Sequence record: MN850622.1 | Length of the DNA stretch: 64,000 nucleotides | Direction: 5' to 3' (one strand) | Source: Escherichia phage mobillu | Shown: piece after piece, positions 1-6,170 of the stretch | Position numbering within the stretch: position 1 is the first letter of the stretch | How the letters are laid out: each line of letters starts with the position of its first letter | Translations under genes and position numbers: made by a program | Notes under the pieces: generated by a model | Told to the model about the DNA's origin: nothing | The model's input: the letters and a program-made list of their open reading frames with translations, nothing else | The model's database searches: none

Positions 1-851
1 AATCAAAATCAAGTCTTGCTCGTCCACAAATTATTGATGCAATTTTAGATGCACTGAAATTCAGCACAGACACTTATTTTGTAAGTCCTGAAACTGTTCG
101 TCGTGATTTCACTAAAGAATTCTATACGAAAGTTATTGATCGTTGTGAAAGCATTCAACCATTGATTGATTCATTTGGTAAAATCACACATGTGAACTAC
201 ACTAAGATTGGACGTCTGAAGCCAATGCTGAAACAAGCTTTAGAACACCTTATTCGTTATCATAACCGTTCTCAGGGACAGTACTCTGTTATTCATGGTG
301 ACCCGAACTTCAGTAATACTATGATTACTGATAACGGCGAAGTCAAGTTTATCGACCCTCGTGGATATTTTGGCGAAACCAAGATTTACGGGCCAAAATT
401 GTATGATGAAGCTAAAGTGCTTTATGCTGTTTCAGGTTATGATGAATTCAATGCTAATCCGACCTGGGGACAGTTTACTATTGATGAAACAACTTGTAAT
501 GTGACTATTAACATCAATCCATTAGTTTACAAATATGGAAAGATGAGTTCGTTTAACGAGTATCATCATTTGGCTGTAGCAATTATCTGGATTGCATTAG
601 GTGGTTATTTCAAGAATAATCCACTTAAAGCGGTAGCCGCATATTATAAAGGTATGGAACTTCTGACTAAGCAATTACGTAACATGGGCCGTGTACTTCA
701 AGACGGCTCTATTAGTTATGACGTAGCAGAACCTGTAACGGCTACTCTGATTACAAAAAATCCTGGTAAATGGGTACTAACTGATAAAGAAACTGGTGTT
801 TCCTATCGTCCAATCGGTGGCGATATCACTCATCAATGGGAACGAATCTAA
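1..851 (+). CDS. protein-kinase-like (APH/choline-kinase fold) phosphotransferase, 5-prime truncated at window edge
   Basis: Reading frame open from nt 3 with no stop and no ATG before the window start; catalytic-loop-like VIHGDPNFSNTMI and FIDPRGYFG motifs; stop TAA 849-851. Confidence 0.55.
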   Translation, partial: SKSSLARPQIIDAILDALKFSTDTYFVSPETVRRDFTKEFYTKVIDRCESIQPLIDSFGKITHVNYTKIGRLKPMLKQALEHLIRYHNRSQGQYSVIHGDPNFSNTMITDNGEVKFIDPRGYFGETKIYGPKLYDEAKVLYAVSGYDEFNANPTWGQFTIDETTCNVTININPLVYKYGKMSSFNEYHHLAVAIIWIALGGYFKNNPLKAVAAYYKGMELLTKQLRNMGRVLQDGSISYDVAEPVTATLITKNPGKWVLTDKETGVSYRPIGGDITHQWERI

Positions 852-1237
852 TGCACCGTGTAGAAAACATGCTTAATCTTTGTTTTGATGTCGATGATTG
901 TATAACAGAGTGGAATAACAATCGTGATTACGTGAACTTCAAACCAGACGTCGAAATGGTGTCTGCCATTAATGCCCTGTATGATGCAGGGCATACCATA
1001 ACGCTTTACACTGCTCGCGGTATGAAGTCAGTAGGTCCTGGTCGTATAGCAATTGACATTCTCCCAAGTCTGATTCAGAACTTGGCAAACATTGGCTTGA
1101 AGTACCATAATTTGCTAACACATAAACCAGTATATGATTGGATTATCGACGACAAAGCTATGCGTCCTGACGAATTCAAAGCTCTTATGAATAAAGGCGA
1201 ATTCGAAACATTTAAATCATATAAACCAAATCTATAA
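851..1237 (+). CDS. small HAD-superfamily-like phosphatase (possible 5-prime(3-prime)-nucleotidase type)
   Basis: TAATG overlap with upstream stop; N-terminal FDVDDC (DxD) motif, TLYTARG, and C-terminal K...IIDDK resembling HAD motifs I-IV; alternative start 836. Confidence 0.5.
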   Translation: MHRVENMLNLCFDVDDCITEWNNNRDYVNFKPDVEMVSAINALYDAGHTITLYTARGMKSVGPGRIAIDILPSLIQNLANIGLKYHNLLTHKPVYDWIIDDKAMRPDEFKALMNKGEFETFKSYKPNL

Positions 1238-1294
1238 TAATTTAAGTAAGACCTGCAAAAACCATCGCATCAATTAACGTGAGATGCAAAAAAA

Positions 1295-2455
1295 ATGAAT
1301 ACTTTTAAAATCGGAACGAATTTTGATTTAGCTCTTCTTGATAAAATCGTAGAGCTCAATAAAACTTATCCTAATAGCTTGATAAACGAAGTATACGGCT
1401 CTACAAGAGAAATGGCTTTTGTAGCAGCCAGACCTGATTTTAGGCTTCCTGACGTTGACAAAAAGATGTTAGAAGATTACGTTAAACGTTGTAACGAATT
1501 AGGTATTTGCTTTAACTATACACTCAACACGATAAATCCTGGTTCAAAAAGAGAACTAGTTGAGTGGAAGAAGAAAGCTATTCAGGATTATGTTCAGTAT
1601 CTTTGGTCAATAGGCGTATGGCGTATTACTATCGCTAACCCTGTTGTTATGGAAATTGTTCGTGAAGTCAATAAAGACATTGAGATTGAAGTTTCAACAA
1701 TTCTACATGTCGATGCTGTAACTCAAATCAAATACTTGCATGACCAGTATAATATCAAAAAGGTCTGCTGTGGAATTCATAAGAACCGTTCAGTTTCTTT
1801 CCTGAAGCGTGCAGCAGAGTTTTGCAATAAGAACAATATAATATTTGAAGTTCTTGTAAATGAGTTCTGTTCTAATGCTGGTAAAGGGTATACAACACAT
1901 TGTAGCTATCGTGACTCTTGCTATATTTTCCATAGTACTGATGTTACAGCTGATGATGCTAAATCCTTAAACGGATATCCTATGCAGCACTGTATTAAAG
2001 CTCGTGATACAGACCCATTTAACTGGTTGAGAACTCGTTTTGTTCGTCCTCAAGATTTGAAACTTTATAATGATATTGGTATCACTCAATTCAAAGTTTC
2101 AGGACGTACAGGTAGCACAGACTACATTTTGAAAGTTCTTGAAGCATACGCTTCTGAAAAGTTTGAAGGTAATTTGTTAGAACTGTGGAAGCCTTTAGAG
2201 ACTATTTTCACTCTTGAAAATGAGACCGAGTTTTCACATACGGTAAATATTGAAACCTCTTTGTTAGATGGCTTTTTAGAAAAAAGGTGGTTCAGACATC
2301 CAGATTTCGATTGTGCTAATGAAATCTGCGGGACGACGTGTACATATTGTGAAAGATATTATAAACGTCAGTTATCTAAAAATGGGTTATCAGAAAATTC
2401 TATATCTATTATTGATATAACTAACTCTGATGACGCTTTGAGGTACCCAGAATGA
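1295..2455 (+). CDS. peptidase U32-family protein (RlhA/TrhP/UbiU-like putative Fe-S prephenate-dependent hydroxylase)
   Basis: 386 aa; N-terminal layout and FKVSGRTGSTDY segment resemble U32 KIEGR region; multiple Cys incl. C-terminal CxxxxCxxxCxxC; assignment from memory of family motifs. Confidence 0.5.
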   Translation: MNTFKIGTNFDLALLDKIVELNKTYPNSLINEVYGSTREMAFVAARPDFRLPDVDKKMLEDYVKRCNELGICFNYTLNTINPGSKRELVEWKKKAIQDYVQYLWSIGVWRITIANPVVMEIVREVNKDIEIEVSTILHVDAVTQIKYLHDQYNIKKVCCGIHKNRSVSFLKRAAEFCNKNNIIFEVLVNEFCSNAGKGYTTHCSYRDSCYIFHSTDVTADDAKSLNGYPMQHCIKARDTDPFNWLRTRFVRPQDLKLYNDIGITQFKVSGRTGSTDYILKVLEAYASEKFEGNLLELWKPLETIFTLENETEFSHTVNIETSLLDGFLEKRWFRHPDFDCANEICGTTCTYCERYYKRQLSKNGLSENSISIIDITNSDDALRYPE

Positions 2456-2691
2456 TTTCTAGAAAAACTTTTAACCACCAACTTAATGAAGAGATTTTGA
2501 CTATGAAAATTAACAGCAACGAACAAATTCTTAAAAAGGCCCTTATGGGCCTGTTTGAAACTAAAGCGGCTAAAGTGATTAAAGGACCTGTTCAATTGGA
2601 ATACTACGCTGATGCATTTCTTCATAGTGTTCTTGGAAGTATCGATGCTGAAGCTTTACGTTATATCAACATTGTCAAGAAATTCAAATAA
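2452..2691 (+). CDS. hypothetical protein
   Basis: ATGA start/stop overlap with upstream gene; 79 aa; no recognisable motif. Confidence 0.45.
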   Translation: MISRKTFNHQLNEEILTMKINSNEQILKKALMGLFETKAAKVIKGPVQLEYYADAFLHSVLGSIDAEALRYINIVKKFK

Positions 2692-2714
2692 GCTTTACGA
2701 ATTGAGTATATAAT
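2692..2714 (+). promoter_or_regulatory. putative middle promoter for gene 42 (MotA box GCTTTA + TATAAT)
   Basis: aGCTTTAcgaattgagtaTATAAT, box-to--10 gap 11 nt. Confidence 0.35.
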
Positions 2715-2733
2715 AAATTGTATTGAGGTAAAC

Positions 2734-3450
2734 ATGGGAAAACATAACACAATGAAATATATCAAAGCCGCAGATTTTCAAACCGCATTTAAAGCAGTCA
2801 ATCGTGAAATTTTAGAAAACCCGGAATTCGTAACTGATTCTCGTATTGGACGTTGTAATGAAATTGGGTCTATGACAGTAGTTGTTGACACTCCATCATC
2901 ATTCAAAATGACCGACCCACGTATTAACCGCATCTCTTATGAATACGCCGAAGATTTCTGGAAGTTTATGATTTCTGGTGGTACCAACGCAGAAGAAGCG
3001 TTTAAGGCATATCCTAATGTCGCTAAATTTATTTCTAAACCAAAATCAGATGTTTTGCCGGCGAACTTCAACACTTTCTACGGTCCTCGCATTGCGGCCC
3101 AATTACCAGCTCTTCTAAAAGAACTTAAAGAGAAGCCTAACTCCCGAAGAGTTGTGTTCCAAATTCTAGAAAGTTCTGATCAGGCTTTGCTTGATTCAGA
3201 CGAAACGCTTGAATATCCATGTACTGACTCAGTGACTTATTATATTCGTGATGGTAAGCTTTATACCCACTGTCATATGCGTTCTCAGAACTGTGCTGTT
3301 GTTATGCAGTTGGATTTTTATCTCCAAGGAAAATTACTTCATTATATCGCTAACGAATGTGGTGTAGAAGTTGGTGATTATACTCATACCATGGTAAGTG
3401 CCCATGTGTTTGAACGTGATTTTGATTATGTTAAAGGATTCCTTGACTAA
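2734..3450 (+). CDS. 42: dCMP hydroxymethylase (thymidylate-synthase superfamily), gene 42 homolog
   Basis: GAGGT RBS; SRR and YPCTD catalytic-Cys motif, MRSQN motif, Asp at position +31 from catalytic Cys (equivalent to T4 gp42 Asp179 / TS Asn177); syntenic with T4 gene 42 next to uvsX. Confidence 0.75.
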   Translation: MGKHNTMKYIKAADFQTAFKAVNREILENPEFVTDSRIGRCNEIGSMTVVVDTPSSFKMTDPRINRISYEYAEDFWKFMISGGTNAEEAFKAYPNVAKFISKPKSDVLPANFNTFYGPRIAAQLPALLKELKEKPNSRRVVFQILESSDQALLDSDETLEYPCTDSVTYYIRDGKLYTHCHMRSQNCAVVMQLDFYLQGKLLHYIANECGVEVGDYTHTMVSAHVFERDFDYVKGFLD

Positions 3451-4349
3451 TGGCTATTTTCCGCGTACCAATCTTGAGTATGCGGTCTTATGAAACTGGA
3501 CAGTATGCTATCCTTAAGGATGGCAACTTCCAACTTCATTTGCACCGTGCTAATCCAGGTGATGTGATTACATATCCACGTAATGCATCTGATATTAAAG
3601 AATGCGAACGTCTTTTCCCAGAATTTAAGTTTGTTCCATTATGGTATAAAGATAACGCGTATAACACTCGTAAATATTTCTGGTCTGAAAATGAATTTGT
3701 GGTTGATTCATTAATTGCTTATTATGATTGTGATTTTCTAATCACAGATATCACCGGATATGACGGTGCTTTTGATGTAGAATTCAATTTCAATATCACT
3801 GCAGACCCTAATAAACCACGTTTTTATATTGACGAATTCTTAAAAACCGACATGTTGTCGGTTAATCGTTCACTTCAAACTACTGTGTTGAACGAACGTC
3901 AAAAAGAAGTGCTGGTTAACGCAGGTGCAGATGGTAATAAGATTATCGTAACGCAGAAAGTTATACGTCCTTCCATCATGCAGCGTCTTGTAGGTGATTT
4001 GGCTCCTATTCATCTAGATGGTATTTTTCATCCATTTCGAATTAGCGACCCGTGCTATCGTTTTGAACAAGTGGTTGAATGTGCAATTCAATTAGGCCAA
4101 CCGCTTTATATAACCGATCCAAATAATAGCTTCGACAGAAATAAGTATCCTGAAGAAGCGCTGATTCGAATTTTTAAACCAACTAAAACTGAGTACTATC
4201 AAATTCTTAAAGGACGTCCGAAAATTCAATATTTCGAAAATCCTGAAGAAGTATTCCATCCAGGTCTTGGTGAGTTCATCTACTTTAATGCTTTAATTTC
4301 TTCGCCGTATAATATACCTAAATATGAAGATGTCGTAATCGAGGAATAA
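3450..4349 (+). CDS. hypothetical protein in beta-gt syntenic slot (possible transferase)
   Basis: TAATG coupling to gene 42; 299 aa; no recognisable similarity to T4 beta-glucosyltransferase by eye. Confidence 0.5.
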   Translation: MAIFRVPILSMRSYETGQYAILKDGNFQLHLHRANPGDVITYPRNASDIKECERLFPEFKFVPLWYKDNAYNTRKYFWSENEFVVDSLIAYYDCDFLITDITGYDGAFDVEFNFNITADPNKPRFYIDEFLKTDMLSVNRSLQTTVLNERQKEVLVNAGADGNKIIVTQKVIRPSIMQRLVGDLAPIHLDGIFHPFRISDPCYRFEQVVECAIQLGQPLYITDPNNSFDRNKYPEEALIRIFKPTKTEYYQILKGRPKIQYFENPEEVFHPGLGEFIYFNALISSPYNIPKYEDVVIEE

Positions 4350-4350
4350 A

Positions 4351-4899
4351 ATGGCTAAAATTATTTTAGTAGATGGCCCAGATAATGCTGGTAAAACAAC
4401 TTTCATTAATGACATAATGGAAATTAGTGAAAGATATGTAAAGATTGATTTCCCTAAACGAACAGTTGATGGGCGTTTCGATGTTAAGTCTCGAAATGAA
4501 GTTGGCTGCTTCGAAACGATGTTGAATTATTTAGACCCTACTAAGATTTATCTGTTAGACCGTGGATATATTAGTAACTGGGTTTATGGACGTATTCGAC
4601 AAGATGCGGACTCGGTTCTTGACGTTTATGAACAGGATTATGTTCGTCTTTGCCAAAACCATGATGTGTTCACAATTATTTTAACACGTAACGAAATGAC
4701 TGAAAGTTTTGAAGACGACCTTATTACTTTGTCTTCATTCGGTTTTAATACAGTCATTTCACATTTTGAAGAGTTTGCAATTCATAACAAAATCCAAACG
4801 TATCAATTACTTAATCATGATGGTGCTAACAAAGTTATAGGATTTAATGCAAGCGAACGTAATTATTTGATTACAGAAATTATCAAATGGGCTCGTTAA
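4351..4899 (+). CDS. P-loop nucleotide/nucleoside kinase-like protein (TMPK/dNK-like)
   Basis: Walker A VDGPDNAGKTT near N-terminus; LDRGYISNWVYG resembles DR(Y/H) motif of thymidylate/deoxynucleoside kinases. Confidence 0.6.
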   Translation: MAKIILVDGPDNAGKTTFINDIMEISERYVKIDFPKRTVDGRFDVKSRNEVGCFETMLNYLDPTKIYLLDRGYISNWVYGRIRQDADSVLDVYEQDYVRLCQNHDVFTIILTRNEMTESFEDDLITLSSFGFNTVISHFEEFAIHNKIQTYQLLNHDGANKVIGFNASERNYLITEIIKWAR

Positions 4900-4919
4900 G
4901 AGCCATTTAAAGTTTTAAA

Positions 4920-4944
4920 TGCTGTATAACCCTTAGTATATAAT
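4920..4944 (+). promoter_or_regulatory. putative middle promoter for uvsX (MotA-box-like TGCTGTA + TATAAT)
   Basis: aaaTGCTGTAtaacccttagtaTATAAT. Confidence 0.3.
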
Positions 4945-4997
4945 CATCTTATCTTTTAAACATGAGTAAAATATAATGATGCCTATGGAAAAATACA

Positions 4998-6170
4998 ATG
5001 TCTGATTTAAAATCTCGTTTGATTAAAGCTTCTACTTCTAAAATGACTGCAGACTTGACTAAGTCTAAGCTGTTTAATAATCGCGATGAAGTCCCTACTC
5101 GTATTCCAATGTTGAATATTGCACTAGGTGGTGCACTGAATGCCGGGTTGCAATCAGGCTTGACTATTTTTGCTGCTCCTTCTAAACACTTTAAAACGTT
5201 GTTTGGACTGACCATGGTTGCAGCATATATGAAGAAATATAAAGATGCAATCTGTTTGTTTTATGACTCAGAATTCGGTGCTTCGGAATCTTATTTTCGT
5301 TCAATGGGTGTTGATTTAGACCGTGTAGTTCATACTCCGATTCAATCGGTCGAACAACTTAAGGTTGATATGACTAATCAGCTTGACGCGATTGAACGCG
5401 GTGATAAAGTTATTATCTTTATTGACTCGATTGGTAATACTGCATCTAAGAAAGAAACCGAAGATGCATTGAACGAGAAAGTTGTAGGTGATATGTCTCG
5501 TGCTAAGGCACTTAAATCTCTGTTCCGCATTGTGACCCCGTATCTGACTATTAAAGATATTCCGTGTGTTGCAATTAACCATACAGCAATGGAAATCGGC
5601 GGATTGTATCCTAAAGAGATTATGGGCGGTGGTACAGGTATTCTTTATTCTGCCAACACGGTATTTTTTATCTCTAAACGTCAGGTTAAAGAAGGTACAG
5701 AATTGACCGGTTATGACTTCACGTTGAAAGCAGAAAAATCTCGCACAGTTAAAGAGAAATCTACTTTCCCGATCACGGTTAATTTTGATGGCGGTATTGA
5801 CCCATTCAGTGGCTTGTTAGAAATGGCAACTGAAATTGGTTTTGTAGTTAAGCCTAAAGCTGGTTGGTATGCTCGTGAATTCCTTGACGAAGAAACAGGT
5901 GAAATGATTCGTGAAGAAAAATCATGGCGTGCTAAAGCTACTGATTGTGTAGAATTCTGGGGACCTTTGTTTAAACACAAACCTTTCCGAGATGCAATTG
6001 AAACTAAATATAAACTAGGTGCTATCTCTTCTATTAAAGAAGTTGATGACGCTGTTAACGACCTTATTAATTGCAAAGCAACAACTAAAGTTCCGGTTAA
6101 AACTTCTGATGCTCCATCTGCAGCAGATATAGAAAACGACCTTGACGAAATGGAAGATTTCGATGAATAA
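4998..6170 (+). CDS. uvsX: UvsX RecA-like recombinase
   Basis: 390 aa; strong N-terminal and core similarity to T4 UvsX; synteny uvsX-40-41. Confidence 0.95.
   Translation: MSDLKSRLIKASTSKMTADLTKSKLFNNRDEVPTRIPMLNIALGGALNAGLQSGLTIFAAPSKHFKTLFGLTMVAAYMKKYKDAICLFYDSEFGASESYFRSMGVDLDRVVHTPIQSVEQLKVDMTNQLDAIERGDKVIIFIDSIGNTASKKETEDALNEKVVGDMSRAKALKSLFRIVTPYLTIKDIPCVAINHTAMEIGGLYPKEIMGGGTGILYSANTVFFISKRQVKEGTELTGYDFTLKAEKSRTVKEKSTFPITVNFDGGIDPFSGLLEMATEIGFVVKPKAGWYAREFLDEETGEMIREEKSWRAKATDCVEFWGPLFKHKPFRDAIETKYKLGAISSIKEVDDAVNDLINCKATTKVPVKTSDAPSAADIENDLDEMEDFDE

Follow-up and report, generated by a model that had tools for sequence, protein, structure and literature searches.

The left end of the Escherichia phage mobillu DNA analysed here (sequence record MN850622.1; the whole stretch of 64,000 nucleotides is called the window) raises a simple question: what do a kinase-like phosphotransferase and a HAD-like phosphatase, encoded back to back at positions 1-1237, do for the phage? 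The initial annotation, made from the sequence alone, proposed that the pair could make or edit a phosphorylated donor or intermediate within a DNA-modification locus. We consider it very likely, at a probability of roughly 0.9, that the two genes form the core of sugar activation for arabinosyl-5-hydroxycytosine DNA hypermodification in RB69-like phages. The features of the pair are as follows.

1..851, + strand: 3′ part of a predicted bifunctional NTP-transferase/sugar kinase gene (RB69 gp52:53, AfhE-like), residues 280-561 of 561
294..317, + strand: kinase catalytic loop HGDPNFSN, Brenner motif HxDxxxxN, from the alignment of 16 homologues
348..365, + strand: metal-binding motif FIDPRG, equivalent of the DFG Asp, the Asp being fragment residue 118
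708..848, + strand: C-terminal tail, about 47 residues past the kinase domain (alignment columns about 485-546; pLDDT 47-68)
849..853, + strand: TAATG stop/start overlap, kinase gene to HAD gene, read from the sequence
851..1237, + strand: HAD-superfamily phosphatase, 128 aa (RB69 gp51, AfhF-like), from identity to PDB 9iqw, the match to 1xpj and motifs I-IV
884-901, + strand: HAD motif I, FDVDDC
1007-1021, + strand: HAD motif II, YTARG
1118-1129, + strand: HAD motif III, THKP
1142-1156, + strand: HAD motif IV, IIDDK

Positions 1-851 encode the C-lobe and C-terminal tail of the kinase, the final 282 codons of a 561-residue protein. As the initial annotation had noted, the start of the kinase is missing from the window: its N-lobe and the NTP-transferase domain would be encoded upstream, beyond the window edge. 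Frame 3 of the + strand contains a single stop, the terminal TAA at 849-851; the remaining + frames contain 20 and 35. The catalytic Asp of HGDPNFSN (fragment residues 98-105) is fragment residue 100, which is residue 379 of the full protein. In the alignment of 16 sequences, with identity down to 28%, H98, G99, D100, and N105 are invariant, as are I117, D118, P119, R120, and G121 of the FIDPRG motif (fragment residues 116-121). Both kinase catalytic motifs are intact in the fragment, which retains the catalytic and the metal-binding Asp in the alignment.

The C-lobe has three-dimensional similarity to the APH/choline-kinase-like (eukaryotic-like kinase) fold. A protein-database search with the kinase returned 19 homologues, none of them near-identical, which sufficed for the alignment and for a usable model. 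At the level of sequence families, the fragment remains under the Pfam gathering cut-offs, at 17.6-19.1 bits versus 20.3-22.4 (Fructosamin_kin, 18.1 versus 22.4; EcKL, 17.6 versus 22; Seadorna_VP7, 19.1 versus 20.3), and no NCBIfam family scores above threshold. A sequence search of the PDB gave no match to the kinase fragment, even at E up to 1; therefore, no AfhE-like structure is available by sequence. The kinase is a divergent branch of the APH/choline-kinase-like fold; PF01636 or PF03881 is found in its distant homologues.

In the closest relatives, whose sequence is the same throughout the 282 residues in common, the protein is a 561-residue NTP-transferase/kinase fusion. In the full protein of Shigella phage JK45 (561 aa), the segment VTKFALTEQGRALQKDEISWY precedes the part present in the window and aligns with the K and E positions of the homologues; it may hold the conserved Lys/Glu pair of an ATP-binding N-lobe. 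An N-terminal NTP_transferase domain is recognised in the full-length relative (Pfam PF00483, E=8e-10), which also matches NCBIfam models for sugar-1-phosphate nucleotidyltransferases, including MurU. The tail of about 47 residues is confined to the closest, fusion-type homologues (P0001-P0003, P0005, and P0006 in the 16-sequence alignment). As a lesser possibility, this tail could dock the HAD protein or the NTP-transferase domain and so channel the bisphosphate intermediate.

The second gene begins at the ATG at 851-853, which overlaps the last base of the kinase stop codon, so that the TAATG junction described at the outset is correct; another in-frame ATG, at position 836, is the start used in one relative's annotation. 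The 128-residue product is identical at 128 of 128 positions to chain A of PDB 9iqw, whose deposited name is 'Capsule biosynthesis protein'. It is also related to the HAD-like protein 1xpj (E=5e-10), with all four motifs aligned, and this kinship, together with the identity to the solved 9iqw, places it in the HAD fold. Both Asp residues of motif I, FDVDDC, the nucleophile and the acid/base, are present and align to DLDGT of 1xpj, while YTARG, THKP, and IIDDK, with the Ser/Thr of motif II, the Lys of motif III, and the acidic pair of motif IV, align to STARN, VGKP, and YIDDR. The fifth position of motif I is Cys here (DVDDC), not the usual Thr or Val; it is Thr in Acinetobacter phage Maestro. 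With the four HAD motifs and the kinase motifs HGDPNFSN and FIDPRG all in place, the reading of positions 1-1237 as a kinase-like phosphotransferase and a HAD-like phosphatase is borne out. In the domain searches, the HAD protein matched 1xpj, phrog_1238 (E=1e-42), and, as its sole NCBIfam match, TIGR01689 (EcbF-BcbF; E=4e-13), the last at 49.5 bits versus a cut-off of 162, with no match in Pfam; the kinase fragment stayed below the Pfam cut-offs. A single-sequence AlphaFold model of the HAD protein reached a pLDDT of 38 and was unusable.

VC0232 (the protein of PDB 1xpj) and the EcbF-BcbF proteins of TIGR01689 are likewise small capless HAD proteins of about 125 aa in which the four motifs align. 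To our knowledge, the substrates of these phosphatases are not defined. Judging from the adjacent PDB codes, 9iqw is probably AfhF of coliphage HY126, and the codes suggest that it belongs to one deposit series with 9iqc/9ir2/9iqu, the entries matched by the product of a neighbouring gene. We propose that the HAD protein is an arabinofuranose-1,5-bisphosphate 5-phosphatase.

The surroundings of the pair are informative as well. In a megablast search with bases 1-5000, 150 phage genomes covered at least 80% of the query, and the best DNA identities were to Escherichia phage PTE-Eco05 (99.0%), Shigella phage JK45 (98.8%), and RB69 (98.6%). Judged by its sequence, the window phage is an RB69-like Mosigvirus. 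The kinase fragment matches residues 280-561 of the PTE-Eco05 protein at every position; it has one difference from JK45 and one from RB69 ORF052c. Relative to RB69 gp52:53 (ORF53_52c) and gp51, 281 of 282 and 127 of 128 residues are identical, and the gene order is the same; in the RB69 record, a one-nucleotide sequencing error splits the first gene, but these are otherwise the same genes. Downstream of the HAD gene, the window contains the following genes.

1295..2455, + strand: U32-peptidase-family gene (RB69 gp50), Pfam PF01136, E=7e-11
2452-2691, + strand: 79-codon ORF (RB69 gp49), hypothetical in all relatives, its ATG overlapping the U32 stop (ATGA)
2734..3450, + strand: thymidylate-synthase homologue, 5-hydroxy-dCMP synthase (RB69 gp48), Pfam PF00303; PDB 9iqc/9ir2/9iqu
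3450..4349, + strand: putative DNA arabinosyltransferase 1 (RB69 gp46:47), a single 299-aa ORF, after PMC13326640 Table 1
4351..4899, + strand: thymidylate-kinase-like nucleotide kinase (RB69 gp45), from RefSeq, a weak TIGR00041 match and PMC13326640 Table 1

The thymidylate-synthase homologue is near-identical to PDB 9iqc/9ir2/9iqu (E=8e-161), and its RB69 counterpart, gp48, has been demonstrated experimentally to make 5-hydroxy-dCMP (PMC13326640). The 299-aa ORF at 3450..4349 had no Pfam match and no PDB sequence match; the gp46:47 counterpart is one ORF in the JK45 annotation too. Tight junctions recur within the cluster, with a TAATG at 3448-3452 and, at 4347-4353, a TAA, one base, and an ATG. 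Scans for promoters and terminators were uninformative, with no more hits than shuffled sequence would give.

In the relatives, the region downstream of the DNA polymerase gene 43 contains a gene for an arabinose-5-phosphate isomerase (SIS domain), a small ORF, the 561-codon gene, and the HAD gene, followed by the U32-family gene, a small ORF, the thymidylate-synthase homologue, the 299-codon gene, the thymidylate-kinase-like gene, and uvsX. The isomerase gene lies upstream of the fusion gene in RB69, JK45, and PTE-Eco05 alike. The order in the window, taken together with the upstream genes of these three phages, therefore gives an adjacent, co-oriented HAD gene in a cluster with genes for the isomerase, 5-hydroxy-dCMP synthase, and a glycosyltransferase, that is, a locus of the AfhE/AfhF type. 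Maestro is alike: an isomerase-sized gene, a 557-codon fusion, and the HAD gene precede a ThyA homologue, a glycosyltransferase, and a kinase. The fusion/HAD junction of Maestro is an ATGA overlap, equivalent to the TAATG here, and its fusion and HAD proteins have 56% amino acid identity to the kinase fragment and 61% to the HAD protein, respectively. Maestro is reported to carry arabinosyl-5-hydroxycytosine (PMC13326640). Altogether, the HAD gene is present in 374 phage records, from phages of Escherichia, Acinetobacter, Klebsiella, Shigella, and others.

Farther afield, HAD homologues with 34-38% identity are found in Synechococcus phages S-SSM7, Bellamy, and S-T4 and in one marine virus; the cyanophage copies are labelled 'phosphoheptose isomerase', and that of S-SSM7 adjoins a cysteine dioxygenase gene. 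Stand-alone homologues of the kinase, of about 300 aa and about 30% identity, are found on giant-virus-like metagenomic contigs that carry DUF5764 and RNA-polymerase-subunit genes (L007, 8001-10553; L009, 1667-8924; L010, 1416-8673). Their neighbours are epimerase-HAD fusions, CTP_transf_like/mannose-phosphate-isomerase genes, and a GT11 glycosyltransferase, and these loci may be other viral sugar-activation modules. This setting suggests that kinase, HAD protein, and nucleotidyltransferase together make up a recurrent sugar-activation module.

The records of the relatives contain errors. The RB69 GenBank record splits the fusion into ORF053c and ORF052c; in the alignment, one surplus base stands at ORF position 655. 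The split was shown to be mistaken by re-sequencing and expression (Thomas et al. 2018, PMC6024577), the gene giving a single protein of 561 residues. In RB69 NC_004928, two frameshift errors still split gp52:53 and gp46:47 (L001, 5165-6851 and 9448-10348). Across hundreds of related genomes, the HAD protein is called 'phosphoheptose isomerase', 'bifunctional protein GlmU' is the name given to the fusion, and the 5-hydroxy-dCMP synthase is labelled 'dCMP hydroxymethylase' or 'thymidylate synthase'. In these genomes, all four labels are misleading.

What, then, would the pair do? The DNA of RB69 contains mono- and di-arabinosyl-5-hydroxycytosine (Lee et al., NAR 2026, PMC13326640), a finding that corrects the arabinosyl-hydroxymethylcytosine first proposed in 2018. 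In the same paper, RB69 gp55 is equated with the isomerase of coliphage HY126, gp52:53 with its AfhE, and gp51 with its AfhF. As relayed there from He et al. (Nat Chem Biol 2026), AfhE is both a kinase for D-arabinose-5-phosphate and a pyrophosphorylase for UDP-D-arabinose, and AfhF is a phosphatase that depends on Mg2+ and turns arabinofuranose-1,5-bisphosphate into the 1-phosphate. Because the window proteins are near-identical to those of RB69, and because the HAD protein is identical to the probable AfhF structure, we take the pair to be the same enzymes. With HY126 AfhE/AfhF, as far as these are described at second hand, the window pair shares its architecture and its type of locus; no difference is detectable in a comparison that uses the reported architecture and 9iqw, the kinase being likened by description. 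The enzyme activities come from the literature on HY126; what we observed directly, namely the genes, their motifs, the kinase fold, the identity to characterised or solved proteins, and the conserved synteny, leads us to infer that the window copies share them. The proposal that the pair makes a phosphorylated sugar donor or intermediate in a DNA-modification locus is likewise supported by the near-identity to RB69 gp52:53/gp51 and by synteny.

We propose the following pathway. The phage arabinose-5-phosphate isomerase, whose gene would lie upstream of the window, would convert ribulose-5-phosphate to D-arabinofuranose-5-phosphate. The APH-like kinase domain (1-851) would then use ATP to phosphorylate the anomeric O1, giving arabinofuranose-1,5-bisphosphate, from which the Mg2+-dependent HAD enzyme (851-1237) would remove the 5-phosphate. 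The predicted N-terminal NTP-transferase domain, its coding part outside the window, would join arabinofuranose-1-phosphate and UTP into UDP-arabinofuranose, and phage glycosyltransferases would move the sugar onto 5-hydroxycytosine in DNA. A 5-phosphate that stays in place while the anomeric phosphate is added would lock the sugar as a furanose, a logic like that of GmhA/HldE/GmhB. Sugar chemistry and the heptose analogy make the kinase-then-phosphatase order sensible, since arabinose is held as a furanose by its 5-phosphate up to the point at which the anomeric phosphate fixes the ring.

The ADP/GDP-heptose pathway (GmhA, HldE/HddA, GmhB, HldE/HddC) follows the same succession of isomerase, anomeric kinase working on a sugar phosphate, HAD phosphatase that takes off the distal phosphate, and nucleotidyl transfer, and its SIS isomerase and HAD phosphatase are of classes related to those of the phage enzymes. 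The kinases differ: the phage enzyme has the APH/choline-kinase fold and a pentofuranose substrate, whereas those of the heptose pathway have the ribokinase or GHMP fold. The HAD protein gave no match to the NCBIfam GmhB model, and the phage enzymes are not classed as GmhB/GmhA on that basis. A second comparison is with AmgK/MurU (a MurNAc/GlcNAc anomeric kinase and a uridylyltransferase) and LicA/LicC (a choline kinase and a cytidylyltransferase). These have kinases that act on unphosphorylated substrates, need no phosphatase, and are usually separate proteins, in contrast to the fusion found in the relatives of the window phage.

The order of the two middle steps could be the opposite, with the HAD protein turning arabinose-5-phosphate into free arabinose, on which the kinase would then act at C1, much as in the salvage routes of AmgK/MurU or of fucokinase/GDP-fucose pyrophosphorylase. 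Free arabinose is mainly pyranose, so that an intermediate released in this way would relax mainly to the pyranose, yet the proposed product is an NDP-arabinofuranose. Phosphatase-first is the order given in Table 1 of PMC13326640 (Araf5P to Ara to Araf1P), whereas the text of that paper, following the HY126 biochemistry that it relays, has the kinase acting on Araf5P and the phosphatase acting afterwards on Araf1,5P2 to give Araf1P. The order in the table looks like a leftover from the preprint. Moreover, the HAD structural neighbours cited in PMC13326640 include heptose-1,7-bisphosphate 7-phosphatase, which also speaks against phosphatase-first. We consider the reversed order quite improbable and retain the kinase-first pathway.

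It might also be supposed that the database labels are right and that the pair serves a heptose or hexosamine pathway for a host-surface sugar, not a donor for DNA modification. The RefSeq and PHROG names ('phosphoheptose isomerase', 'bifunctional protein GlmU', 'capsule biosynthesis phosphatase') say as much, and the HAD protein does match TIGR01689 EcbF-BcbF. However, that match reaches 49.5 bits where the cut-off is 162, the GlmU models give 16-23 bits where 367-718 are required, and the HAD protein has no SIS or isomerase domain. The neighbours, furthermore, are genes for 5-hydroxy-dCMP synthase, a DNA glycosyltransferase, and arabinose-5-phosphate isomerase, in phages with arabinose on their DNA. 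With scores so far under the cut-offs, no SIS domain, and neighbours of this kind, we rejected this reading as highly improbable. That the kinase-like protein is a choline, aminoglycoside, or fructosamine kinase unrelated to DNA modification was rejected too, its chances being negligible given identities of 9-15% to such enzymes, the fusion to a sugar-1-phosphate nucleotidyltransferase in the relatives, and synteny with the arabinose pathway that is kept across genera.

The U32-family gene, which codes for a divergent member of the family, follows the HAD gene and precedes that for 5-hydroxy-dCMP synthase. It is found in 221 phage records, all at 80% amino acid identity or more, and the hosts listed are Enterobacterales, along with one Shewanella phage. 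The Maestro cluster lacks it, as do, by counts, nearly all of the 57 HAD-carrying Acinetobacter phages; the arabinose pathway of Acinetobacter phages does not depend on it. Among characterised U32 proteins, RlhA is needed for 5-hydroxycytidine in 23S rRNA, TrhP for 5-hydroxyuridine in tRNA, and UbiU/UbiV for the O2-independent hydroxylation of ubiquinone. It is conceivable, though we regard it as rather unlikely, that the U32 protein provides an anaerobic route to 5-hydroxycytosine that backs up the O2- and flavin-dependent ThyA homologue. If this were true, it would explain why phages of facultative anaerobes retain the U32 gene with at least 80% identity and why the gene is missing in Acinetobacter phages with the same gene cluster.

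By BLASTP, the U32 protein showed no significant similarity to RlhA, UbiU, or UbiV of E. coli (E 0.05-0.2). In a five-sequence MAFFT alignment, with 16-21% identity, the phage protein has gaps opposite the Cys motif of the family. It does have a C-terminal cysteine cluster, C-ANEI-C-GTT-C-TY-C (C-x4-C-x3-C-x2-C), at residues 340-352 (window 2312-2350, + strand), the last three Cys of which are spaced like the radical-SAM CxxxCxxC, and a second Cys-rich stretch, NEFCSNAGKGYTTHCSYRDSC, at residues 189-209. These stretches suggest putative Fe-S binding in an arrangement unlike that of the E. coli U32 proteins. The protein is listed only as a 'sugar or heterocycle reductase' by Lee et al. (PMC13326640), and in the literature consulted, the U32 gene alone among the genes of the cluster has not been given a convincing role.

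The pathway itself is already known, from a prediction in 2018 and from chemistry, biochemistry, and structures in 2025-2026, and no new biology is added to it here. For the window phage and the other RB69-like phages, the kinase-HAD pair would supply the activated sugar for arabinosyl-5-hydroxycytosine, the base that takes the place of every cytosine in the DNA of RB69-like phages and stops many restriction enzymes (PMC13326640, PMC13390438).
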